A stretch of 64,000 bases of DNA. Source: Escherichia coli (GTDB lineage Bacteria > Pseudomonadota > Gammaproteobacteria > Enterobacterales > Enterobacteriaceae). Position 1 is the first letter of the stretch; each line of letters opens with the position of its first letter. Below the pieces are notes generated by a model. The model did not search any database and had not been told where the DNA came from. It saw only the letters and a program-made list of their open reading frames with translations. Below, piece by piece: positions 5,260 to 52,177 of the stretch. The stretch is taken from the NCBI RefSeq assembly GCF_013122565.1, contig NZ_CP053258.1, one strand, 5' to 3'. The translations under genes were made by a program, and so were the position numbers.

Positions 5260-5266
5260 TAAATAA

Positions 5267-5298
5267 CCCGGCAGCGTTTCTTCTGCGCTGCCGGGATT
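5267..5298 (+). terminator. Putative hairpin terminator after yhjJ
   Basis: Stem cccggcagcg / cgctgccggg directly after the yhjJ stop; weak T tract. Confidence 0.4.
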
Positions 5299-5457
5299 AA
5301 CGGTAATGAATAAGTTGCCGTGATATACCCGCAGAGATTTTTCCAGGCACGGCGGTAGCGTGCAGATAACCATTCATTATTAGAATAAACTTACGGCTGT
5401 GTGAGTTTAATTATTTATTGGCTGAATAAATTGCCAGGAAATAGATGGTGTTAAATA

Positions 5458-5718
5458 ATGGCCTATCATATAGAAATATGGGAAATTGAAGAAACTGATA
5501 AAGTAGTAAAATATGAATTTGGACCTATATCTTCTGACTATTGTAGATCTGATTACGGCGAGTTCGTGATAGATAAAAGAACGGGGGAGATGACATTAGT
5601 CAGACTGGTTAAAAACGATTCGGCTAATAAATTTTATTTGCGAGCGAGTTTTAAGATTCTGACCTGTTGGCGAAAGGGCTATTTGCCAAAAACAAGGAAT
5701 GAGCTTCTTAATAAGTAA
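5458..5718 (+). CDS. Hypothetical small protein (86 aa), AT-rich accessory ORF
   Basis: ATG-initiated ORF, very low GC, first of five co-directional small ORFs; no family recognised. Confidence 0.4.
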   Translation: MAYHIEIWEIEETDKVVKYEFGPISSDYCRSDYGEFVIDKRTGEMTLVRLVKNDSANKFYLRASFKILTCWRKGYLPKTRNELLNK

Positions 5719-5779
5719 CTTTGCATAATAAGTGAATTTTCCCATTTTTGGGGGGCAGTCGTTGATTCTTACACAGTTT

Positions 5780-6028
5780 ATGTTATGGGTGCAGAAAAAC
5801 ACTGGGCATAATATTAAAAGCAATGCCAATACCTTATCAACCAGCATAGTTATTGATTTTGATAATGATATCCATATTGCCAGATTTACAGGTTGGGATG
5901 ATTTAAGTTGTATGTCAGAAGTTATATGCGTTGAATCGGGTGATTATAAATTAAATCAGCGAAATGAATTCCATACTTATGATTCGCTAAGGATAATATT
6001 TGATGCTTTAATAGAAAGCATACAGTAA
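5780..6028 (+). CDS. Hypothetical small protein (about 82 aa from first ATG; 98 aa if non-ATG start at 5732)
   Basis: ORF in the same AT-rich cluster; start codon unclear and no convincing RBS. Confidence 0.3.
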   Translation: MLWVQKNTGHNIKSNANTLSTSIVIDFDNDIHIARFTGWDDLSCMSEVICVESGDYKLNQRNEFHTYDSLRIIFDALIESIQ

Positions 6029-6088
6029 CTTTTTTCTTAGTAAGAAAATAATATACACGAGTATATCTAATTAAATTTAGGATAGGCT

Positions 6089-6568
6089 ATGGATTTTCAC
6101 CTGGATATTTTGCTCCCTACACGTTTCGCTCCAGAGGAACTAGATCTACAAGAGGTTATGGTTCACTGGGGTGGGGAAACCTTTCATCGCGACCCTCCTG
6201 TATACGCCTGGTGTAATCATTATCTCTTGCAGAGATGTAATATACCGATTACTTATGGCCAACCTTTAGATGAGCACATAGACTTTAATGAATACCATAT
6301 TTACAACTTCAATGGTTCTATAGTCGATGAGCTGGAAATGGCTGTGAATAAAGGAAAGGATATTTCAACCGATCCTATAATTAAAATTATTAACAACCTG
6401 ATTAGCAAAAAGTACAGGGGGTGGTTAATCTTGTCATTAGATGATGAAAAAATAGAAGTAATTAAAAATATAAGTTCCCAGTGTTCTTTTCAATCGTTAT
6501 TAGTTGATGGACTAAAATGGGAAAGACCACATGGGGTGGCAATATTATATAATTCACACTTAATTTAA
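6089..6568 (+). CDS. Hypothetical protein (159 aa), AT-rich accessory ORF
   Basis: ATG start preceded by aggatagg RBS-like sequence; no recognised motifs. Confidence 0.45.
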   Translation: MDFHLDILLPTRFAPEELDLQEVMVHWGGETFHRDPPVYAWCNHYLLQRCNIPITYGQPLDEHIDFNEYHIYNFNGSIVDELEMAVNKGKDISTDPIIKIINNLISKKYRGWLILSLDDEKIEVIKNISSQCSFQSLLVDGLKWERPHGVAILYNSHLI

Positions 6569-6585
6569 TTAATGAAAGGAAACAT

Positions 6586-6888
6586 ATGTATCGTGCAAAG
6601 GTTGTTTGGCTTACAGATAAAGAAGGTGGTAGAAGGAGCGCTCCTCCCATCGGTAGATACTATCCCGTCTCCAGATTTCCAGAGGAGCAAACTGACTGGC
6701 AAAATAATGCATGGAGTGTTGTTTTTGAATTGGAAAAACCTAATGTAACCGATGGACGTATCGTTTCAATGGGGGGCGTTCAGTTCCTTTTCGATACTGC
6801 CCCTGCACAATGGATGACTAAGTACGAGGCATTTGAAATCTACGAAGGACCAAGAAAAGTCGCAGATGTATTCTTGATAGAAAATTAA
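6586..6888 (+). CDS. Hypothetical protein (100 aa)
   Basis: ATG start preceded by aaaggaaa RBS; 17 nt after the previous ORF stop, suggesting an operon. Confidence 0.45.
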   Translation: MYRAKVVWLTDKEGGRRSAPPIGRYYPVSRFPEEQTDWQNNAWSVVFELEKPNVTDGRIVSMGGVQFLFDTAPAQWMTKYEAFEIYEGPRKVADVFLIEN

Positions 6889-6948
6889 TTTTATTTATGT
6901 CAGTCAATTTAAGCATATTTGCGACTCAACGCATGTTCAGGAGTGTAA

Positions 6949-7482
6949 ATGCGCTACAAAAAAGTCATGCTATTATTGCTAACAGTCATTCTTTGCTTAA
7001 CCGGTCTTTATTCCTGCAACAAAAATTTTCTCTTACTCTGGGATGCCAATAATATTTATGTCAGTACAAAAAATAATATCGATAAAGACAAGGTGAAAAT
7101 AGAATTCGGCATCAGCGTCAACACGATCAACCGAGAAACGGATGCCGAATTATTTGCTGACAGAGATAAGTATACCGTGCTCTTCGATGGTAGCCTGAAA
7201 AGCAAGATGATAAACGAGTACGGCGAAAATGATTTTTTAATTACCTACGATGACCGCTGCTATTTATCATTTCGTCAATTTAAAACCAATCGTCGTCATC
7301 AACATGACTATTATTTTTACTTCTTTAACAAGGATGGGAATGTCTTCGTCACGGTCGAAATTAAAGGTGAGAACCCGCTTAAATTTACACGTAGTTTAAA
7401 TGATATGCGTCAGCAGTTTTCACCATTCCGTAAGGGTAGCACTTCTCACTCCTGCAAGGTTATTTCTTCAGATCCTTCTTAA
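6949..7482 (+). CDS. Hypothetical putative lipoprotein (177 aa)
   Basis: ATG with aggagtg RBS; N-terminal signal-like sequence ending LTGLYSC (lipobox-like cysteine); 3' end overlaps the convergent lipoprotein gene by about 23 nt. Confidence 0.45.
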   Translation: MRYKKVMLLLLTVILCLTGLYSCNKNFLLLWDANNIYVSTKNNIDKDKVKIEFGISVNTINRETDAELFADRDKYTVLFDGSLKSKMINEYGENDFLITYDDRCYLSFRQFKTNRRHQHDYYFYFFNKDGNVFVTVEIKGENPLKFTRSLNDMRQQFSPFRKGSTSHSCKVISSDPS

Positions 7483-9502
7483 ACACTGGTTCTGGACAAT
7501 CACGACCAAAATGCGCAGCCCAGTCAAAAAATTTACCGTTTTTCACGTAGCGTTGATAAATTAATGCACCGGTTTCTGGATCAAGATATCTGACCCAACT
7601 TGCAGCATGGCATAAGACGGCAGCCCATGCTTGGGTTTTAGGGTGAAGTAAATAGGCAGATTGTTCGGCCCATTCCGCAGCCTGCCAGCGGTAATGCAAA
7701 AAGTGATCATCAGCGGTGGGGATCGCGTGGCGAATACGTTTATTTTCTTTACGACTTATCCATTGATCGTTATTGCTGTATTCAAAGGGGGACGAATATT
7801 GCCCGCTGGTAATGGCATAATCGGGATACATTTCATAAGCCACTAATTCGATACCACTGAAACGCAAAAGCCGCGCAGCTTCGTATTGTGCCTGGGCGCG
7901 TTGCTTATCAGGGATGTTTTTATTTTTCGCTATCGCCATTAAATCAGCCAGTTTTTGTGCGGCCTGGCGATAATTGGGAATATCAAACCAATTGATGGCC
8001 TGCTGATATTGACCATGACGTATTAATCGTCTCCCTAATAGCGCACGTAATTTAACATCCGTTGGAATGATATCTGGCGAAATATAATAACCGTAATTGC
8101 TATTGTTTAAATCTACAGGTTTTAAAGGGTGCTGAGGTGCCGGTACGTTGTTTTCAACAAACGCCTGTAACTCCGGCAAGGTCAAAACGTTTTCTGCAAC
8201 CCAGGCTAAATCGGCCCAATAGAGATCTTTCGCCTGGTAAAACAATGCAGCCGCCTGAAGATAATCATCGCGTTTTAATGCTAAAATCGCCTGCTCACTG
8301 GCAATACGGCAAGATGGGATAGTAACTTTATCTCCATGATAATAAGGGCTTTCCTGGTCCATACTTCCCCACATTTCATCGGTCGGGAACAGCGGGACTG
8401 CGCGAGCATAGTGACGCGTTGCCAGTGGAATATCTCCGGCTCGTAATGCCATTTTTGCTTTTAACCATTCGCTTAATCCACTTTCTGGCGCATCCTCCAA
8501 CAGCGTTTGTGCTAACGAATAATTTCCTGCCCGATACGCCAGTGCTGCCAGTCGATCGCTATAACTAAATCCTTTAACTCTGTGTTGACTTAGCAACTTA
8601 ATTAAACGGTCGCGATGCGTTGGACAGGTATAATCTACAAGGTCTTCAGTACAGGCTTCGCTAACATACCCCCAGTCATGACGAATAAAGAGCTCTGCGA
8701 TTACCAGTTGCTGAACCAGTGGATCATCAATAACCGATTCCAGCAGTGGTAAATTTTTCTCCCTGGTTAGATATAGCGAAATCATTCGTAACGAAGCTTT
8801 CCCGGAGGGCGAACCCTGGGCCGCTTGCCGGGCATAAATTTTTACTGCCGCAGCGACATCACCTTTTTTCAGATAATAATGCCCAATCTGACCGAGACTG
8901 GCGAGAGAGAGCTGCTCAGGATCGGCTGCGCCATTACGGACCTCTTCAATGATTTGCTGATAACGTTGTATGGCCTGCTCAGCAATTTCCTGATTAAAGC
9001 CGCCTTTATTGATTATAAGATCGAGATTGTCGTCAGTGGCATCAAATCCCCCTCTTGCCAGACTATATAGCGCAGCAAGACGCCATTCCCCTTGCTCTGT
9101 TTTCGGTAAGGCTAATAATTGCTGAAAGTAAGGGCTATCGTATTTTCCCTGATGAAAATCCTTAGCTCCTGAATAATAAAGCCACTGCGCATCAGATAAT
9201 GGTTTCTGCAATTTTTGCGCGATTTCCAGTGACCTATTTTGCACAGGAGACTCAGCATCATCATCTGTATTTTCCTGCGTTGCCTCCGCGGGCGTATTTT
9301 CATGCCATATTGGTAAACCAGGATCGCGTTTAGCCAACTGTTGTACTTCAAAGACAAAACTGCCATTTGGCATTTCCAGCAGTGCGCTATTGCGGTCAGT
9401 TAACAGATGGTTAGGAATAAATGGTCCACAGGCATTAACATTGGCGCTAATTAGTGAGAGAAATACAATAACGGAAATCCGCGATCTATTAGGGGATAAC
9501 AT
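7460..9502 (-). CDS. Putative outer-membrane/periplasmic lipoprotein with TPR/Sel1-like helical repeats (about 681 aa)
   Basis: Long ORF; most plausible start is the ATG preceded by aaggagag RBS giving MLSPNRSRISVIVFLSLISANVNAC (signal peptide plus lipobox-like Cys); several degenerate A/Y/L-rich helical repeats. Function unknown. Confidence 0.6.
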   Translation of the reverse strand: MLSPNRSRISVIVFLSLISANVNACGPFIPNHLLTDRNSALLEMPNGSFVFEVQQLAKRDPGLPIWHENTPAEATQENTDDDAESPVQNRSLEIAQKLQKPLSDAQWLYYSGAKDFHQGKYDSPYFQQLLALPKTEQGEWRLAALYSLARGGFDATDDNLDLIINKGGFNQEIAEQAIQRYQQIIEEVRNGAADPEQLSLASLGQIGHYYLKKGDVAAAVKIYARQAAQGSPSGKASLRMISLYLTREKNLPLLESVIDDPLVQQLVIAELFIRHDWGYVSEACTEDLVDYTCPTHRDRLIKLLSQHRVKGFSYSDRLAALAYRAGNYSLAQTLLEDAPESGLSEWLKAKMALRAGDIPLATRHYARAVPLFPTDEMWGSMDQESPYYHGDKVTIPSCRIASEQAILALKRDDYLQAAALFYQAKDLYWADLAWVAENVLTLPELQAFVENNVPAPQHPLKPVDLNNSNYGYYISPDIIPTDVKLRALLGRRLIRHGQYQQAINWFDIPNYRQAAQKLADLMAIAKNKNIPDKQRAQAQYEAARLLRFSGIELVAYEMYPDYAITSGQYSSPFEYSNNDQWISRKENKRIRHAIPTADDHFLHYRWQAAEWAEQSAYLLHPKTQAWAAVLCHAASWVRYLDPETGALIYQRYVKNGKFFDWAAHFGRDCPEPVFKKDLKK

Positions 9503-10694
9503 TGAACTCTCCTTGTATTTTTTTATTGCAGCGCGCCCATCCCAGCGGACTGCTTTCTCCGGCACGCAGCTGCCTGTCGCTTATCCTTACAAAATGCAGG
9601 CTGGATGAGCCAGGTTGCACCTGATAGTGGCTTACTCCATCAGCGAATAGACAATCTGCATTGGGCAGAATTATTTGTTTTGGCAACGGCGCATCAATTA
9701 CGCCGCTGTTTTTAAAGGCCAGATCAAAAAGTTGCTTGTCTGTATGTTGAGTAATTATTAACGACCAGCGCGGAGTCAGCGGTTGATGTCGAATCACGGC
9801 TTCCAGTGTTGTCAGTGACCAGGCGCGGCGATCGCCTGCTAACGGTAGCCGAAACCATACCAACCCCTGTAATCCACGCGGTGGTTGCTGTTCTATATAT
9901 TGAATAAACTCGGCAATCGTTTGTGGAGATACACTTAGTTCTTGCATTTCATCAGCAACGTATAGCGGGGATTCGCTTTCGACACGATTATCACTGGTGA
10001 GTGCGGAGCCATAAGCGGGCAATGCGATGAAAAAAGGGTGCGTGGTTTGCCTGGCATATTGCTTTACCCAACGCTGCGCCAGACTGACATCTAACAGGCC
10101 TTTTTCGGGCGACAGCACGTTATGTACCTGGAAAACCGAAGTGTCCGCAATCCGCAATAATCGAGCGAGATGTGGTGATTCAAGCCAGGTGGGCAGGGCG
10201 GTAACGCTGAGTTTTAGATTTGTGGGAAGTGCCTGATGTAACGCACTAAGTAGGGTCTGATATTCCGGCAATTTTGCTGTTGGCGCGTCATAATCAATTT
10301 CCACCCCTGCCAGTGTAATACCTGCGTTTTGCCACTCACGTTGGGTTTGTTGAATATGCTGTATTATTTGCTGGTTATTAAGCCCTGTTAGCTGACCATC
10401 GAGTCGCGCGACCAGCCAGACCGGGCGACCATCCTGCTTAATAAGCGAAGTATTCACCGCAAAATGTCGGATGCCTTCCTGTAGATGAAATTGCATCCCG
10501 AGTATGCGCAGTGTAGAAAAAAGTGAACGGCTTTGTTTTAGAGCGCTGGTATGTTCTGCTGTCCATACACGTTGCCAGATATAGGCTTGCTGATCAAAGC
10601 GAAGCGGCTGTGAGGGGGTAAATAAATTATGCAGCCCATAACCCAGGCAGATCAGAAGAAGTGAAGCTGCAATAATCCTTTTGCAAGATGGCAT
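9489..10694 (-). CDS. Putative secreted or membrane-anchored protein (401 aa), DUF3142-like by recollection
   Basis: ORF with N-terminal hydrophobic segment (RIIAASLLLICLGYGL); stop overlaps the start of the downstream lipoprotein gene by about 14 nt, suggesting translational coupling. Confidence 0.6.
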   Translation of the reverse strand: MPSCKRIIAASLLLICLGYGLHNLFTPSQPLRFDQQAYIWQRVWTAEHTSALKQSRSLFSTLRILGMQFHLQEGIRHFAVNTSLIKQDGRPVWLVARLDGQLTGLNNQQIIQHIQQTQREWQNAGITLAGVEIDYDAPTAKLPEYQTLLSALHQALPTNLKLSVTALPTWLESPHLARLLRIADTSVFQVHNVLSPEKGLLDVSLAQRWVKQYARQTTHPFFIALPAYGSALTSDNRVESESPLYVADEMQELSVSPQTIAEFIQYIEQQPPRGLQGLVWFRLPLAGDRRAWSLTTLEAVIRHQPLTPRWSLIITQHTDKQLFDLAFKNSGVIDAPLPKQIILPNADCLFADGVSHYQVQPGSSSLHFVRISDRQLRAGESSPLGWARCNKKIQGEFNVIP

Positions 10695-10788
10695 ATTGTC
10701 ACGGCATAACGATCATCAACAGGGCGGTAGTGTACTGCCGAAACTATTAACGGAGAACGAATATCTACCCGTTCTCCGTCAAAAACCA

Positions 10789-12716: not shown

Positions 12717-12785
12717 GCTGCCTCATTTTCCGCCTGGCTGGACTATCTTTAGGACTGGCACAGGAAGAATATGAGGAAGCGAACG

Positions 12786-14846
12786 ATGAGCAAGGCAGGC
12801 AAAATAACCGCTGCGATTTCAGGGGCTTTCTTGTTGTTGATTGTCGTGGCGATCATTTTGATTGCAACTTTTGACTGGAATCGACTCAAACCGACCATCA
12901 ACCAGAAAGTCTCTGCGGAGTTGAATCGTCCGTTCGCTATCCGTGGCGATCTGGGCGTGGTGTGGGAGCGGCAAAAACAGGAAACCGGCTGGCGCAGCTG
13001 GGTGCCGTGGCCCCATATACACGCGGAAGACATCATTCTCGGCAACCCACCAGATATTCCCGAAGTCACGATGGTGCATTTGCCACGCGTAGAGGCAACG
13101 CTGGCACCGCTGGCGCTGCTGACCAAAACGGTCTGGCTGCCGTGGATCAAGCTCGAAAAGCCCGACGCGCGCCTGATTCGCCTCTCTGAAAAGAACAATA
13201 ACTGGACGTTTAATCTTGCCAACGATGACAACAAAGACGCGAATGCAAAGCCGTCGGCATGGTCGTTTCGGCTGGATAATATTCTGTTCGATCAAGGGCG
13301 GATCGCTATTGATGACAAAGTAAGCAAAGCGGATCTGGAAATTTTTGTTGATCCGTTAGGCAAGCCGCTGCCGTTCAGTGAAGTTACTGGATCGAAAGGT
13401 AAAGCGGATAAAGAAAAGGTCGGCGATTACGTTTTTGGCCTGAAGGCGCAGGGACGTTATAACGGTGAACCGCTCACGGGTAAGGGGAAAATTGGCGGTA
13501 TGCTGGCGCTGCGTGGCGAAGGGACGCCGTTTCCGGTACAGGCTGATTTCCGTTCAGGTAATACCCGTGTTGCTTTTGATGGCGTCGTGAATGACCCAAT
13601 GAAGATGGGCGGTGTCGATTTACGGCTTAAATTTTCTGGCGATTCACTGGGTGATCTCTATGAACTGACGGGCGTTCTGCTGCCCGATACCCCGCCGTTT
13701 GAAACGGATGGTCGGCTGGTAGCGAAAATCGACACAGAAAAATCGTCGGTCTTTGATTATCGCGGCTTTAATGGGCGCATTGGCGATAGCGATATCCACG
13801 GTTCTCTGGTCTACACCACCGGCAAGCCACGACCAAAACTGGAAGGTGATGTCGAGTCGCGGCAATTGCGGCTGGCGGACCTGGGACCGTTGATTGGCGT
13901 TGATTCCGGGAAAGGAGCAGAAAAGTCGAAACGGTCTGAACAGAAGAAGGGTGAAAAAAGCGTTCAGCCTGCGGGCAAAGTGCTGCCTTATGATCGCTTC
14001 GAAACCGATAAATGGGACGTTATGGATGCCGATGTTCGCTTCAAAGGCCGACGTATCGAGCATGGCAGTAGCCTGCCGATTAGCGATCTTTCTACTCATA
14101 TCATCCTCAAAAATGCTGACCTGCGCCTGCAACCGCTGAAATTTGGCATGGCGGGCGGCAGCATTGCGGCGAATATTCATCTGGAAGGCGATAAAAAGCC
14201 GATGCAGGGGCGGGCAGATATTCAGGCTCGTCGACTGAAACTGAAAGAACTGATGCCCGATGTGGAACTGATGCAGAAGACGCTGGGGGAAATGAACGGT
14301 GACGCGGAACTACGCGGTAGCGGTAACTCGGTGGCGGCACTTTTAGGCAACAGTAACGGCAACCTGAAACTGTTGATGAATGACGGGCTGGTGAGCCGCA
14401 ACCTGATGGAGATTGTTGGGCTGAATGTCGGCAACTACATTGTCGGTGCGATATTTGGTGACGATGAGGTGCGGGTGAACTGCGCGGCGGCGAATCTTGA
14501 TATTGCCAACGGCGTGGCGCGCCCGCAGATCTTTGCTTTCGATACGGAGAACGCGTTGATTAACGTTACCGGCACGGCAAGTTTTGCTTCGGAACAGCTG
14601 GATTTGACTATTGATCCGGAGAGTAAAGGAATTCGGATTATCACACTGCGTTCGCCGCTGTATGTGCGTGGGACGTTTAAAAATCCGCAGGCTGGGGTGA
14701 AAGCCGGGCCGTTGATTGCTCGCGGAGCCGTTGCGGCGGCACTGGCAACGCTGGTTACGCCAGCGGCGGCGTTACTGGCGCTGATCTCACCTTCCGAAGG
14801 GGAGGCTAATCAGTGTCGGACGATTTTGTCGCAGATGAAGAAGTGA
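12786..14846 (+). CDS. yhjG: AsmA-family protein YhjG
   Basis: 686 aa from MSKAGKIT; N-terminal TM anchor then large periplasmic domain typical of the AsmA family. Confidence 0.85.
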   Translation: MSKAGKITAAISGAFLLLIVVAIILIATFDWNRLKPTINQKVSAELNRPFAIRGDLGVVWERQKQETGWRSWVPWPHIHAEDIILGNPPDIPEVTMVHLPRVEATLAPLALLTKTVWLPWIKLEKPDARLIRLSEKNNNWTFNLANDDNKDANAKPSAWSFRLDNILFDQGRIAIDDKVSKADLEIFVDPLGKPLPFSEVTGSKGKADKEKVGDYVFGLKAQGRYNGEPLTGKGKIGGMLALRGEGTPFPVQADFRSGNTRVAFDGVVNDPMKMGGVDLRLKFSGDSLGDLYELTGVLLPDTPPFETDGRLVAKIDTEKSSVFDYRGFNGRIGDSDIHGSLVYTTGKPRPKLEGDVESRQLRLADLGPLIGVDSGKGAEKSKRSEQKKGEKSVQPAGKVLPYDRFETDKWDVMDADVRFKGRRIEHGSSLPISDLSTHIILKNADLRLQPLKFGMAGGSIAANIHLEGDKKPMQGRADIQARRLKLKELMPDVELMQKTLGEMNGDAELRGSGNSVAALLGNSNGNLKLLMNDGLVSRNLMEIVGLNVGNYIVGAIFGDDEVRVNCAAANLDIANGVARPQIFAFDTENALINVTGTASFASEQLDLTIDPESKGIRIITLRSPLYVRGTFKNPQAGVKAGPLIARGAVAAALATLVTPAAALLALISPSEGEANQCRTILSQMKK

Positions 14847-14885
14847 TGAGGTTGGATTGTGTTTGCTGGTGAGTTCGGGAGCAGC

Positions 14886-15075
14886 GTGTTCCCCTCACCC
14901 TAACCCTCTCCCCAAAGGGGCGAGGGGACTGTTTTGTGCGTGTTGAAACAACGAGTACCGCTTTTCCGTTCACTTTCTGGGGGGAGGGCTGTTATGTTCG
15001 CGATATAACATCTCGCTCCGCTTTTCTCCCTCTCCCTTTCAGGGAGAGGGCTGGGGTGAGGGTGGCAGCCCGCAC
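14886..15075. repeat. Intergenic palindromic repeat unit: two inverted copies of a ccctcaccctaaccctctcccc-type motif
   Basis: cccctcaccctaaccctctccccaaaggggcgagggg near 14890 and its reverse complement (gggagagggctggggtgaggg) near 15040; a third copy lies at about 16724. Family name not assigned. Confidence 0.5.
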
Positions 15076-15080
15076 GATAC

Positions 15081-16403
15081 TTACAACGACTGATGTCGCG
15101 TCTCATGGGTCAGCAGCAGGGCGATTAACGTCAAGCCAGCCATCGCCGCCAGATATAACCCCACCGCACCTAACCCGTAGTTAGTCTGCAACCAGGCTGC
15201 GATATACGGCGCAACGGAAGCCCCGAGAATCGACGATACGTTGTAAGAGAACGATGCTCCGGTGTAACGCACTTCTGTCGGAAACAGCTCTGGTAACAGC
15301 GCACCCATCGGCCCGAAGGTCAGCCCCATCAGACTTAACCCCAGCAGCAGGAAGGCAAAAACCAGAATGGGGTTGCCAGAACCGAGCAGCGGGTTAAAGG
15401 CGAACAGCGCGAACAGGATGATCAGCGTGGTGATAATTACCATGCTTTTACGGCGACCAAAGGCATCAGCCAGTAATCCGGCGACTGGCACCATCACGCC
15501 AAAACCAATAACTGCCATCATCAGCATCCACAACACTTCGTTACGTGGCAGGCCAAGCCCAACTGGCGCGGCGGCGGTACTAAAGGTCATAGAGTAGACC
15601 GTCATGATGTAAAACAGCGTATAGGTTGCCAGCATGATGAAGGTACCGAGCACCGTGACGCGAACATGTTTGGTCAGCAGCGTACCCAGCGGGATCTTCA
15701 CCTGTTTTTTCGCTTTAGCGACTTTCTCAAACACCGGCGACTCATGCAGCGACACGCGAACATACAGGCCGATAATGACCAGCACCGCCGAGAAGATAAA
15801 CGGCACACGCCAGCCCCAGCTCATAAACTGCTCGTCGGTCAGTAGCCAGGAAAGCAGCAAGAAAGTGCCGTTGGCAAAGAAGAAGCCAATCGGTGCGCCC
15901 AGCTGCGGGAAGGAGCCATACAGTGCACGTTTACGCGGTGGGGCGTTTTCAGTCGCCAGCAGCGCCGCGCCGCCCCATTCACCGCCTAAGCCCAGACCCT
16001 GACCAAATCGAGCCAGCGCCAGCAGCAGCGGGGCGAAAATACCAATCGTGGCATAGCCCGGCAGCAGACCAATCACCACGGTCGAAATCCCCATCGTTAG
16101 CAACGAGGCGACCAGCGTCGCTTTACGCCCAACGCGATCGCCAAAATGACCAAATACGGCAGAGCCAATGGGGCGCGCGACGAAGGCGATGGCGAAGGTG
16201 GCGAGCGACTGTAGCGTTGCTGCCGTTGGATCGCCCTGCGGAAAGAAGATATGCGGAAACACAATAACGGCCGCAGTGGCGTAAATGTAAAAGTCGAAGA
16301 ACTCAATGGCCGTGCCAATGAGAGAGGCGACAAGGACTTTATTACGCGAGTTGATCGGCGTGTATTCTTGCTCGTGGTCGAGTGTTGTGGCTGTTGCTTG
16401 CAT
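15081..16403 (-). CDS. yhjE: MFS transporter YhjE
   Basis: 440-aa ORF with 12 predicted TM helices; recognised as YhjE. Confidence 0.9.
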   Translation of the reverse strand: MQATATTLDHEQEYTPINSRNKVLVASLIGTAIEFFDFYIYATAAVIVFPHIFFPQGDPTAATLQSLATFAIAFVARPIGSAVFGHFGDRVGRKATLVASLLTMGISTVVIGLLPGYATIGIFAPLLLALARFGQGLGLGGEWGGAALLATENAPPRKRALYGSFPQLGAPIGFFFANGTFLLLSWLLTDEQFMSWGWRVPFIFSAVLVIIGLYVRVSLHESPVFEKVAKAKKQVKIPLGTLLTKHVRVTVLGTFIMLATYTLFYIMTVYSMTFSTAAAPVGLGLPRNEVLWMLMMAVIGFGVMVPVAGLLADAFGRRKSMVIITTLIILFALFAFNPLLGSGNPILVFAFLLLGLSLMGLTFGPMGALLPELFPTEVRYTGASFSYNVSSILGASVAPYIAAWLQTNYGLGAVGLYLAAMAGLTLIALLLTHETRHQSL

Positions 16404-16721
16404 AATCTTTTCTTATTTTTTGGCTAACGAATAGCCATATTACGCACAGCAAAAGTGATATTTCAATGTGTAACAAATCGCGGAAATGGTCAAAAATAAG
16501 GCAAAAAGGGGATAATGTTTAGGCCAGTGATTTTTCTTCTATGAAATGCTTCACATAATTTTATAAATAGTGGATAAAACTGGTTTCAGGTTAAATAAAA
16601 GTTACCAACTGGATTTATATGCTGGGGTTATGAGTTGGTATGAAATTGTTTGCTCCTGAAGAGATGTGGTTTCAGGTGGTTATGTGCATGTCATTGCCTG
16701 GTCTCTGGCTGGCTTGTACCC

Positions 16722-16765
16722 CCTCACCCTAACCCTCTCCCCGGAGGGGCGAGGGGATCGACCGT
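16722..16765. repeat. Third copy of the ccctcaccctaaccctctcccc-type intergenic repeat
   Basis: ccccctcaccctaaccctctccccggaggggcgagggg, near-identical to the copy at 14890. Confidence 0.45.
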
Positions 16766-16794
16766 GCGTTTATCAGGCATTATAAACCAATGAA

Positions 16795-17808
16795 TTACCG
16801 CTGCGTTTTCCCCGGCATTCGCGGGTCGTCTTTATATTCGGCGGTGGCAATCCACGCCGCGCAAAACAGCGTCAAACGGGCGAAGAAGTAGAAAAATGCC
16901 ATCAGCCCCAGCACGGAACCAAATGCTGCGCCAGAGGGGGATTTCATCAACGATGGCAGGGTGTAGGTCATCACGATTTTAATCACTTCAAAACCAATAG
17001 CAGCCAGAAATGTTCCGCGAATCAGGGCTTTTTTGCGCGGACGGTGGCGCGGTAACCGCCAGAAGATCCAGAAGAAAAGCAGATAGTTGGCGAAGATGGA
17101 AATCGCCAGGCCAATCAACCGCCACGTCGGTTTCAGCCACTCAATGCTGTTCAGGTGCAGGGCGCTAATAATCATTTGCTGCGCCGAACCGGCAACCGAG
17201 GTGATCGAAAGCGTCACAATCAGCGCAATCAACAAACCAATCAGCGAAATAAAATCACGCAGATATTTTACCCAGAACTTCTCCTGATCTTGCGGCGAGC
17301 GTTCCCAGACATCGCGCGACTGGGCACGAATCGCTTCACGCAGGTTACCCATCCAGTTGATGCCGGAATAAAGTGCCACCGCCAGGCCGACAAGCCCTAC
17401 AGTCGTACGCTGCTGAACGGCGGTGTTGATGGTGTTTTTCAATGTGGCGGCTAGCGTCGGATCGCTGATGTTTTGCAGAATTTTGTCGAAGATATCCTGT
17501 AGCAACATCGGATGGGAGGCCAGCACAAAGCCCCCTGCGGCAAACGACACCATCAAAATCGGGATCATCGACAAAAATGAGAAATAGGTGATAGCTGCAC
17601 CAAACTGGTTACCCAGCCGATCGTTAAAGCGTTCTGTCGCGCGAATCAGGTGCGCAATAACCGGTTGGCGTTGGACTTTTTCGGCAGTGGTGGTGACGGT
17701 TTCCAGCGCCTGGCTAACTTTGCCGCCTTTCTCGCTATTATCCAACGGCTTAATCGGCTCGTGCTCCAGATCCTGGGTGGGACGTTTGATCTCGTTTTCC
17801 TGCGTCAT
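16795..17808 (-). CDS. yhjD: Inner-membrane protein YhjD (YihY/RNase BN-like family)
   Basis: 337-aa ORF; hydrophilic N-terminus followed by multiple TM segments. Confidence 0.9.
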   Translation of the reverse strand: MTQENEIKRPTQDLEHEPIKPLDNSEKGGKVSQALETVTTTAEKVQRQPVIAHLIRATERFNDRLGNQFGAAITYFSFLSMIPILMVSFAAGGFVLASHPMLLQDIFDKILQNISDPTLAATLKNTINTAVQQRTTVGLVGLAVALYSGINWMGNLREAIRAQSRDVWERSPQDQEKFWVKYLRDFISLIGLLIALIVTLSITSVAGSAQQMIISALHLNSIEWLKPTWRLIGLAISIFANYLLFFWIFWRLPRHRPRKKALIRGTFLAAIGFEVIKIVMTYTLPSLMKSPSGAAFGSVLGLMAFFYFFARLTLFCAAWIATAEYKDDPRMPGKTQR

Positions 17809-17856
17809 CCGCTCTTTTGTCCTTCTGTCGTGGTCATTCTTAAAAAGTATAGTCGG

Positions 17857-18756
17857 TCAGTCCAGGTACTCTTTCATTACGCCAGCCAGCCACTGCATAA
17901 ACAGGTTTACACGCCGGGAAAGCTCCCGACGCTGCGGATAAACCAGCGAAAGGGAGAGCGGCTCGGCACGGTAGCCTGGCAACACTTCAATAAGCCGCCC
18001 GGCACGCAGGGCTTCGCGCACGGCAATGCGCGGGATCTGAATAATCCCCAGACCGGCAAGACCGGCGGCGAGATAGTTTTCGCTACTGTTTACCGTCAAC
18101 ATGCCGCCAGACTTAAACCACTGGACGCCATTAACGCTGGCAACCTCAAAACCTAACGGATGTACACCCAGGTGCGGTGTATAACGCACTATTGCGTGTG
18201 AAGTCAGATCATCGGGGCTTTGCGGATAACCAAAGCGCGTCAGATAGTGCGGACTGGCACAGTTGACCATGGTCAGTTTGCCGAGGGGACGGGCGATAAC
18301 GCCATCTTCCGGTAACGCGCCAGTGCGTATCACGCAATCAAAACCATCATGAAGAATATCTACCGGACGGTCATGGCTACTCAGTTCCAGCTCAATTCCC
18401 GGATGCAGATAGAGAAATTCCGACAGGCGCGGCAGTAACAGGCTTTTCGCGATTCCTGGCGGGATGTCGATGCGTAATTTACCGCTGATACTGGTGGCAT
18501 CCTGTTGAAACAGACCGTCCAGTTCGCTGAGATTACTCAACACATCTTTTGCCCGTTGATAATAGGTCATGCCTTCTGGCGTGAGTTTGACCCGTCGCGT
18601 GGTGCGCTGGAGAAGCTGGGTGCCAAGTTGATGTTCCAGTGCCTGTATCTGGCGCGAAACACTTCCCTTTGGCAAAGCAAAGAAATCCGCCGCGCGGGAA
18701 AAACTTTCCAGCTCCGCGACTTTGATGAACAACTGCATTGCGTGAATTTTATCCAT
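17857..18756 (-). CDS. yhjC: LysR-family transcriptional regulator YhjC
   Basis: 299 aa from MDKIHAMQLFIKVAE; N-terminal HTH plus LysR substrate-binding domain; track ORF has a 24-codon N-terminal extension. Confidence 0.85.
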   Translation of the reverse strand: MDKIHAMQLFIKVAELESFSRAADFFALPKGSVSRQIQALEHQLGTQLLQRTTRRVKLTPEGMTYYQRAKDVLSNLSELDGLFQQDATSISGKLRIDIPPGIAKSLLLPRLSEFLYLHPGIELELSSHDRPVDILHDGFDCVIRTGALPEDGVIARPLGKLTMVNCASPHYLTRFGYPQSPDDLTSHAIVRYTPHLGVHPLGFEVASVNGVQWFKSGGMLTVNSSENYLAAGLAGLGIIQIPRIAVREALRAGRLIEVLPGYRAEPLSLSLVYPQRRELSRRVNLFMQWLAGVMKEYLD

Positions 18757-26184: not shown

Positions 26185-26200
26185 AGTTTTACTCAGGCAT

Positions 26201-26306
26201 AAAAAAAACCCGGCATAGGGGACCGGGAAGAGGATAGTCTGCCGTCTCCAGACTAATAAACCGTTATAACACTCCCTGTTGGCACGGGAAACTTTGTGCT
26301 CTCAGT
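26201..26306 (-). ncRNA. gadY: Small regulatory RNA GadY (antisense to the gadX 3' end)
   Basis: Minus-strand sequence ACTGAGAGCACAAAGTTTCCCGTGCCAACAGGG...CCCCTATGCCGGGTTTTTTTT matches GadY as I recall it, ending in a GC hairpin plus U8; lies in the gadX-gadW intergenic region. Confidence 0.7.
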
Positions 26307-26552
26307 AAGTTAAATATAACTTTTACTGGAAATAAGATCAGCCATTTTTTTATAAACATAAGCTATACGCTGTGTGAAAATATATTCTTATTGCATTTAC
26401 TAATTTTTAATCAACTGTTATGCAAAACTACTTTTTGGATAAATTTTGGTCCTACCAAATATGGCAGTTTTTGCACTAAGAAACAGTCTGGCATCATTTC
26501 ATTAGTATACTGAAATTGAAATAATCGCAGTAATGAAATATAAGGGATAATC

Positions 26553-31939: not shown

Positions 31940-32277
31940 TTTAGTCCCTGAAAATTCTTGAGAAATAACGGTTCTTTAAATTGCGCGCGAGGAGAGATAT
32001 GAGGGATTTACAGACCAGCGGCATAGTGGGGTTGTCAGCCAGTAAGGTGGGATACAGGCACAGTGATCGACATGGTGAGGTCAACGACAAAAAAAATGTT
32101 GCCGTTCTGCCAACAGTTCCTGCCAGCATTCGGGCAACGAAGGGTTCTACTGGTGGATACACATACCAGGGGAATAAAGTCGTTTTAGCCTCTCCTTTAG
32201 TAATCACCGGGGGTAATGAAATCAGCATCTGCATCCCTCGTCATGCCAGCCATCAATTTCAGTTGCTTATGTCCTGA

Positions 32278-52011: not shown

Positions 52012-52111
52012 TGCCTGATGCGCTACGCTTATCAGGCCTACATAATCTCTGCAATCTATGGAATTTGCATGTTTTTGTAGGCCGGATAAGGCGTTCACGC
52101 CGCATCCGGCA
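52012..52111. repeat. REP/BIME element (two inverted REP units) between uspB and pitA
   Basis: gcctgatgcgctacgcttatcaggcctac and tgtaggccggataaggcgttcacgccgcatccggca. Confidence 0.6.
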
Positions 52112-52177
52112 TGAACAAAGCGCACTATGTCATAATCTGAAGCGGGCCAGCTGACCCGCTCGTTTTGGTGTGTACGA

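Follow-up and report, generated by a model that had tools for sequence, protein, structure and literature searches.

What are the GC-rich palindromic motifs that bracket the yhjE gene of Escherichia coli, and do they belong to that gene in any functional sense? The question is raised by a stretch of 64,000 nucleotides from contig NZ_CP053258.1 (assembly GCF_013122565.1), which we call the window and in which an earlier note had described three near-identical motifs around yhjE, their family being left without a name. A name exists. Judged by their sequence, all three motifs belong to BoxC (1992), a family with the aliases PIT element (2000) and TMECO (2015); the family is already known and the finding as posed is an ordinary one. 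Taken as a whole, we regard it as very probable that these are polymorphic BoxC repeats and not a device specific to yhjE, a reading in which the family would also have spread together with genes of the DUF559 type.

A 22-mer search with up to 3 mismatches returned exactly 3 sites in the window, against 0.00 expected in 100 dinucleotide-preserving shuffles, and by this search the motifs are real and were correctly placed. The neighbouring genes are the open reading frames (ORFs) yhjG at 12771-14846 (+), yhjE at 15081-16403 (-) and yhjD at 16795-17808 (-), the names being those used in the RefSeq annotation of matching E. coli records. By these coordinates the spacer between yhjG and yhjE contains copies 1 and 2, and the one between yhjE and yhjD contains copy 3; all copies in the window are intergenic, as members of the family always are. 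The units are as follows.

14891-14928, minus strand: BoxC copy 1, type A mm (one stem mismatch), from the published regular expression and the triplet count; on the minus strand it reads CCCTCGCCC-CTTTG-GGGAGAGGG-TTA-GGGTGAGGG.
14884-14941, minus strand: extended BoxC unit of copy 1, about 56 bp, the core with its family-conserved flanks (on the minus strand, 5' cgcacaaaacagtc and 3' gaacacg).
About 14956-15003, plus strand: decayed type B BoxC copy, from alignment with five type B units, flanks included; it reads ccgcttttcc-gttcactttctg-GGGGGAGGG-ctg-ttatgttcgcg.
15028-15063, plus strand: BoxC copy 2, type B-like (stem of 9 bp, perfect); on the plus strand it reads CCCTCTCCC-TTTCA-GGGAGAGGG-CTG-GGGTGAGGG-T.
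14884-15075: head-to-head inverted pair, type A (-) and type B (+), with an interior of 101 nt.
16720-16757, minus strand: BoxC copy 3, type A mm, from the published regular expression and the triplet count; on the minus strand it reads CCCTCGCCC-CTCCG-GGGAGAGGG-TTA-GGGTGAGGG.

Copy 1, written along the window as CCCCTCACCCTAACCCTCTCCCCAAAGGGGCGAGGGGA (14891-14928) and alternatively split as CCCCTCACCCTAACCCTCTCCCC-AAA-GGGGCGAGGGGA, has the yhjG stop codon 44 nt upstream. Copy 3 (CCCCTCACCCTAACCCTCTCCCCGGAGGGGCGAGGGGA at 16720-16757) has a GGA loop where copy 1 has AAA, and the two are 95% identical over 38 nt; the yhjD stop codon is 37 nt upstream of it and the yhjE start codon 316 nt downstream. 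Copy 2 (CCCTCTCCCTTTCAGGGAGAGGGCTGGGGTGAGGGT at 15028-15063), with the yhjE stop codon 17 nt upstream, is an inverted relative. The inversion of the two spacer copies, which the earlier note had also seen, is borne out by 35-nt arms that are 83% complementary, with 101 nt between them. The count of three holds for the intact copies only, since a fourth, decayed one at about 14956-15003 had been overlooked. This remnant retains both flanks and one G block, its C block is mutated and its other G block is gone; together with copy 2 it forms a tandem of about 60 bp.

The assignment to BoxC is based on the family consensus CCCTCNCCC-N3-6-GGGNGAGGG-N3-GGGNGAGGG (Holder et al. 2015, PMC4666352). According to the same paper BoxC (Bergler 1992), the PIT elements (Hoyne and Maher 2000, 2002) and TMECO (2015) are one sequence, of which 23 copies are tabulated for K-12 (PMC4666352, Table 1) and 1-29 copies occur across 56 strains. 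When the consensus was applied to the window as a regular expression, exactly the three copies matched and no other site. Each unit starts with a C-rich block, which a short loop separates from a complementary G-rich block; a loop of 3 nt then leads to the second G-rich block. A single strand of it can fold into a hairpin or, in vitro, into an intrastrand purine-motif triplex. The triplets allowed for the family blocks are those of class II of the purine motif (G.G:C, A.A:T and T.A:T), and in a sequence test all 9 of the 9 second-G-block triplets were allowed in each copy, with 0-1 Watson-Crick mismatch in the stem. The subtypes are defined by the second loop, which is TTA in type A and CCG in type B, and close inverted pairs always join an A with a B (PMC4666352). 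Copies 1 and 3 have TTA. The CTG of copy 2 recurs in K-12 TMECO number 8, a copy assigned to type B; the inverted A + B arrangement of the yhjG-yhjE pair is the same in all five K-12 pairs. The core of copy 1 is identical to K-12 TMECO numbers 7, 11 and 15. The likeness continues outside the 36-nt core: the window copies share with the K-12 copies (for type A, our loci L003-L006) the type A flanks GYGCNC-N5-6-GTC upstream and GAACAG downstream, and the type B upstream flank GCAC-N-TTTTCT. These conserved flanks account for the older 56-bp definition of BoxC. A survey by Bachellier et al. from 1999 is said to have included BoxC as well. Rfam was silent: at the gathering threshold a scan of the whole window gave nothing at the copies, and a permissive covariance-model scan of 13500-18000 with Rfam 15 gave a single match, IRES_Bag1 at E = 0.88, which is by chance. 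The copies carry no annotation in RefSeq records either (no feature lies beneath the genome matches), and naming them is useful for annotation for that reason.

The earlier note had asked for a genome-wide copy count, which shows that the motif is not unique to this locus. The 42-nt unit was found at 95,090 places, 94,725 of them chromosomal, and only one of the 5426 complete E. coli genomes lacked it (5425 had it); single genomes have 1-34 such places (median 19). With these counts it is a repeat family and not a local duplication. A match to the consensus through composition alone had also been considered; it is excluded by the 0.00 expectation in shuffles together with the family-wide count. 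Units were present in 5 of 50,697 phage records and in 502 of 72,556 plasmid records, where several of the top scorers are of chromosome size (4.8-5.4 Mb) or are megaplasmids; weaker relatives (80-90%) were found, again in plasmid records, in replicons of Rhizobium, Sinorhizobium and Azospirillum. When species-representative genomes were scanned with the exact consensus, many copies were found, among the matches listed, in Mitsuaria (Roseateles) chitosanitabida, in Candidatus Contendobacter and in a metagenome-assembled genome of Methylomirabilota. This demonstrates the presence of the motif in distant taxa, in at least the genomes listed. BoxC is, in short, a dispersed repeat with a length of about 36-56 bp, which is strictly intergenic and is found in E. 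coli and in many other Proteobacteria.

How do the copies near yhjE differ between strains? The window is colinear, in reverse orientation, with 3.627-3.686 Mb of K-12 at 97-99% identity (95-99% across the window). Apart from a few indels, this colinearity is broken at precisely the two BoxC segments, which are given here.

14850-15080: whole yhjG-yhjE spacer, without homology to the K-12 spacer, which has a hairpin and two REPs.
16667-16799: segment of the yhjE-yhjD spacer, standing where K-12 has a 152-bp REP pair.

The locus is missing from the K-12 table of TMECO sites because K-12 carries unrelated REP sequence at both positions. The allele with the BoxC pair in the yhjG-yhjE spacer was found in 1598 of 5426 E. 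coli genomes (29%; at least 80% of the query), and the yhjD-yhjE BoxC allele in 600 of 5426 (11%), which means that most strains of the species lack these copies. Over the whole of 14500-17000 the best identity among the 5426 complete genomes is at most 97.9%; by this measure, and by the identity to K-12, the DNA comes from a lineage with no close representative in the complete E. coli assemblies, possibly from Shigella or a divergent Escherichia clade. Strains TUM14771 and P15-25 have a 62-bp deletion between the tandem units, by which the decayed remnant is fused to copy 2; the copy 2 hairpin is destroyed because the deletion takes out its C block. This is the same kind of variation as that described by Holder et al. 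as "TMECO mutated / partly deleted" (PMC4666352). We suggest that the copies are repeats polymorphic by insertion and deletion, sitting in tolerant spots just past the stop codons of yhjG, yhjE and yhjD; in K-12 these spots are filled by REP/BIME elements. The window itself has a REP/BIME copy at 52013-52138, an 86% match to the REP/BIME of the K-12 yhjE-yhjG spacer. Insertions of boxC at BIME sites in natural isolates were reportedly described by Bachellier et al. in 1997 (Genetics). The locus is a clean case of a species in which either of two repeat families can occupy the same pair of intergenic sites.

By what means could such a family have spread? BoxC was first seen beside envM/fabI, and the DUF559 gene ycjD is the neighbour of fabI; because of this neighbourhood the fabI region of K-12 was looked at. 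There ycjD ends inside a degenerate BoxC unit, with its TGA stop codon in the hairpin loop, and it is followed by a duplicated fragment of its own 3' end and then by the intact TMECO number 9, 168 nt downstream. In Mitsuaria, BoxC units flank two ORFs, each about 145 aa long, that encode DUF559 proteins (PF04480, E = 2e-39), and all three DUF559 genes in the Mitsuaria loci have the structure [unit +]-TCTTCG-gene-CGAAGA-[unit -]. A partial duplicate of the DUF559 3' end between the gene-proximal unit and the next one was noticed both in K-12 (1,351,240-1,351,400; L132) and in Mitsuaria (L052, 6384-6491), an arrangement common to the two that hints at how copies arise.

The association is not limited to these two genomes. 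In all 11 of the 11 DUF559 loci examined, from Alpha-, Beta- and Gammaproteobacteria, the gene is bracketed by BoxC-like units, abuts them or ends inside them (related loci are L132 for K-12 ycjD, L052/L053/L055 for Mitsuaria, and L133, L134, L137, L139, L140, L142, L143 and L145). In Pseudolabrys a DUF559 gene has been inserted, with three variant units (CCCTCCCCC/GGGGGAGGG), between pheS and pheT. The DUF559 gene of Enterobacter asburiae (L134, 3001-3363) stands between hemW and yggM. A type B unit encodes its last seven codons together with the stop codon, which falls into the BoxC hairpin loop, and 11 nt further on there is a type A unit. Klebsiella quasipneumoniae has the gene at a different locus from both E. 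asburiae and E. coli, and its stop codon is again in the hairpin loop. On three metagenomic contigs the units overlap both the start and the stop codon of the DUF559 gene, and on one metagenomic contig (L142) a CTCTCTCCC/GGGAGAGAG variant is present on both sides. Two loci had been picked as controls, their proteins having no recognisable BoxC tail, and the pattern was the same: in one a unit abuts the DUF559 stop codon, and in the other there are variant units at both ends, with the TAA stop forming the second loop of the downstream unit. The repeat variant tracks the lineage: Pseudolabrys has CCCTCCCCC, L142 has CTCTCTCCC, and the units of Mitsuaria have a GCTTGC loop. YcjD-type DUF559 genes are thus physically associated with BoxC-like units of the matching variant at every locus examined, and an arrangement of repeat plus nuclease gene, with inverted copies of the gene's own repeat type in unrelated genomes, is found at DUF559 loci outside the window.

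Some further observations concern the surroundings of the units. BoxC units often enclose or precede tandem arrays, e.g. of a hairpin unit of about 66 bp in Klebsiella (L137/L138, 2864-3090) and of a unit of about 49 bp in L143 (2885-3300). The head-to-head pairs of Mitsuaria (L018, L019, L036, L075, L080, L114) have diverse tandem repeats inside and an outer GAAGA/TCTTC extension. By eye, the interior of the window pair has a weak 9/12 match to the 3' end of ycjD.

The units leave a trace in the proteins too, as BoxC-encoded peptide tails such as PSPRPSP, PHPNPLPQAGEG and LSRxRER. Of 120 clusters of homologues of the Mitsuaria protein, 59 had such a tail. Since that query still bore a BoxC tail, which could have biased the seed, the search was repeated with the core of YcjD, which lacks the tail (80 of 120 homologue clusters), and by an index-free search (66 of 150 representative clusters; family size 24,568 clusters at E <= 0.001). 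Tails occurred in 0 of 134 control ORFs and in 70 of 711 in a harsh control, made of crude ORFs from loci selected for BoxC. As to the protein itself, YcjD matches PDB entry 3HRL (DUF559, "endonuclease-like protein") with E = 1e-27. A survey of the PD-(D/E)XK fold grouped VSR, DUF559 and DUF2726 and cited a group I intron homing endonuclease among them (PMC3424549), and DUF559 coding sequences were 14-fold enriched among genes overlapped by inversion-predicting inverted repeats (PMC9881135).

We speculate, from the related loci, that BoxC units are the cognate repeats of YcjD-type DUF559 genes (Vsr-like PD-(D/E)XK), and that gene and units together form an autonomous selfish element; its spread would be due either to transposition driven by the nuclease or to homing into units already present. 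The nuclease would in either case act on the units, mobilising them or homing into them. The roughly 20 gene-less units per genome would then be non-autonomous derivatives or relics, and solitary and paired units such as those at yhjE could have descended from the nuclease system in this way. This is a tentative proposal, which could almost as well be right as wrong, and a number of points weigh against it. Firstly, the sample of loci is small, and some were picked because their proteins showed BoxC tails. Secondly, the enterobacterial DUF559 genes carry BoxC at the 3' end only and not on both sides. Thirdly, the 64-kb window holds no DUF559 gene, and the link is therefore silent on these three copies directly. 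Fourthly, homing of the gene into BoxC pairs that were there before it would account for the association equally well. In the searchable literature, which is incomplete, there is no paper linking BoxC to a protein, DUF559 included, and no nuclease activity of any DUF559 protein on BoxC. Copy number is ambiguous as well. The ycjD gene is present in 3376 of 5426 E. coli genomes, and in 60 evenly spread genomes, sampled with a chimeric ycjD+BoxC query, those with ycjD had 13-29 BoxC places (median 21, ycjD itself included) versus 1-16 (median 4) in those without it. This contrast is confounded by phylogeny, and genomes without ycjD reach 16 copies; it is not independent evidence because it follows the phylogroup. 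The gene is found mainly in phylogroups A, B1 and C, where it sits in the fabI-sapF interval that in other lineages contains the eefRABCD operon (PMC12817139).

Three alternatives to a mobile or decaying repeat have to do with what the units do or resemble at the site, and their folding is needed to weigh them. As single-stranded DNA the units fold at -8 to -11 kcal/mol; the DNA hairpin of copy 2 reaches -11 kcal/mol with z of about -3.1 versus shuffles, and the type A mm copies are less distinct from shuffles. The long stem-loop that the earlier note expected of the inverted copies is supported by RNA folding of 14880-15075, where the pair gives a minimum free energy of -95.8 or -85.9 kcal/mol, depending on the strand (z = -5.6 and -5.1). 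With BoxC as a mobile or decaying repeat, stable hairpins would be placed into three 3' untranslated regions (those of yhjG, yhjE and yhjD), and the spacers might become prone to slippage or deletion, as in the 62-bp deletion allele.

The alternative that survives best is that the units are hot spots of non-B DNA (intrastrand triplex or H-DNA) which are kept for the sake of local variation, i.e. the adaptive instability of Holder et al. 2015. All three copies comply with 9 of 9 triplex rules; oligonucleotides identical or nearly identical to TMECO form very stable intrastrand triplexes in vitro, and TMECO loci show more local sequence variability between strains than control sites (PMC4666352). 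The locus itself offers a whole-spacer replacement, a decayed copy and a 62-bp deletion. However, the triplex was not detected in vivo by dimethyl sulfate (DMS) footprinting, nor was there any in duplex DNA (PMC4666352), which counts against an activity of the folded units in their natural context. Variability would be expected equally of a mobile or decaying repeat, and no benefit of it was shown. The conserved architecture beside DUF559 genes moreover suggests that structure is not all and that a protein partner is involved. We therefore find selection for instability an unlikely explanation.

The next alternative is a dedicated cis-regulatory element, in which the copies would be terminators or 3'-end mRNA stabilisers of yhjG, yhjE and yhjD, selected at this locus. 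The position of the copies speaks for it: each intact copy is 17-44 nt past a stop codon, so that a stable hairpin falls into the modelled 3' untranslated region, and K-12 has a hairpin and REPs at the same positions. REPs are known stabilisers of 3' ends. A U-rich stretch (ACUGUUUUGUG) after the hairpin is found for copy 1 only, read downstream of yhjG, and this copy comes nearest to an intrinsic terminator, with a 10-bp stem containing one mismatch and then ACTGTTTTGTG. Against this, a consensus scan for terminators and promoters gave no site at any of the three copies, and in reporter tests the PIT elements had neither promoter nor terminator activity and no effect on RNA polymerase (PMC4666352), results that also argue against a local effect of the hairpins on our own reading. 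As regards gene orientation and function, no bias is seen in the family (PMC4666352). Most E. coli genomes do without these alleles, and in the deletion allele the copy 2 hairpin is gone. The roles that the earlier note had offered (terminator, stabiliser or recombination site) are generic, and that of a terminator is contradicted by the reporter tests and the scan. A dedicated regulatory role at yhjE is possible but unsupported, because the reporter tests were negative and the triplex was not detected in vivo; we consider it improbable.

It could also be asked if the units are divergent REP/BIME sequences mobilised by RAYT (TnpA-REP). Like REPs, they are short intergenic imperfect palindromes at gene 3' ends with inverted pairs of two subtypes, and the same two spacers hold REPs in K-12. 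The sequences, however, bear no similarity to the REP consensus of the K-12 alleles, and the third block, a G block, has no REP counterpart; the neighbours of BoxC are DUF559 nucleases and not Y1 transposases, and the sole Y1 transposase of the window is that of an ordinary IS200/IS605 element, 25 kb off. REP/BIME membership was tried directly with the GCCGGATGCGGCGTGAACGCCTTATCCGGCCTAC-type REP (PU) consensus and was rejected, as 14850-15080 and 16667-16799 show no homology to the K-12 REPs. The earlier statement that the motifs are not REP/BIME was right, the true REPs of K-12 at both positions being unrelated in sequence, and an origin as divergent REPs is very improbable. A local duplication private to yhjE, i.e. 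a 40-bp segment copied twice nearby with no wider family, could be read from the 95% identity of copies 1 and 3 at a distance of 1.8 kb, but it is ruled out for practical purposes by the family-wide count in 5425 of 5426 genomes (median 19 places), by 23 K-12 positions of which none is here, and by the copies in distant bacteria.

The finding as posed matters little, as it re-identifies a known repeat family at sites where K-12 has REPs. The DUF559 association is the only part that might be new, and we see it as a lead of moderate probability. Earlier work on BoxC, PIT elements and TMECO came to no function and no associated genes. If the association is what we suppose, BoxC, a family known for 30 years, would gain an origin and a testable mechanism, and DUF559 would gain a biological role.

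A few other features of the window may be recorded here. Between yhjJ and kdgK a 5.5-kb segment (5261-10788) is absent from K-12 and matches only 200 of 5426 E. coli genomes, at no more than 93% identity. It contains genes for a TriTu immunity protein (5732-6028, +) and a DUF3142 protein (9489-10694, -), as well as a 701-aa ORF (7460-9565, -) that had no Pfam match. The IS200/IS605-family element mentioned above lies at 41789-43535, adjoining dinQ/agrB, and is not at this site in K-12; it consists of a TnpB-like OrfB (41832-43040, -) and a Y1 TnpA (43056-43514, +), and such elements are common in E. coli (median 3 places per genome). Near it Rfam found AgrB at 41590-41673 and no separate AgrA. 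At about 37940 yhiS is uninterrupted, the K-12 IS5 (3,652,036-3,653,230) being absent here. The matches above the Rfam gathering threshold at 26196-26309 and 32089-32160 are the small RNAs GadY and ES205, as expected for the gad/hde acid-resistance region.

It is useful to compare the copies at yhjE to the systems that are closest to them. With BoxC/PIT/TMECO as described, they agree in consensus, A and B subtypes, inverted A + B pairing, intergenic site, copy number and strain variability. The interior of the K-12 pairs is 16-59 nt, whereas that of the window pair is 101 nt and holds the decayed extra copy; K-12 has 23 copies and the yhjE locus is not among them, and otherwise there is no essential difference. 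K-12 also has tail-to-tail pairs, in which a spacer of 27-29 nt is conserved. At first sight the pairs also look like miniature inverted-repeat transposable elements, most clearly in Mitsuaria, where the head-to-head pairs have conserved terminal inverted repeats of about 40 bp with GAAGA/TCTTC and a variable interior, and the window pair has the same orientation. In contrast to such elements no target-site duplication was identified in BoxC pairs and no DDE transposase is associated; the pair interiors are mutually unrelated and often consist of tandem repeats, and single units are as common as pairs. With REP/BIME and RAYT the likeness is one of design: both are short intergenic palindromes with two subtypes, inverted pairing and strain polymorphism, and in both a protein gene is flanked by its own repeats, as DUF559 genes are by BoxC-like units. 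The sequences are unrelated, BoxC has a third block, and there are about 20 copies versus hundreds for REP; RAYT is an HUH Y1 transposase, while the putative partner associated with BoxC is a Vsr-like PD-(D/E)XK nuclease. For this partner the Vsr-like (EDxHD) homing endonucleases such as I-Bth0305I provide, by resemblance only, a fold precedent of a selfish site-specific nuclease. They differ in that DUF559 genes are free-standing, outside introns and inteins, and in that repeat units, and not one allele, would be their putative sites.

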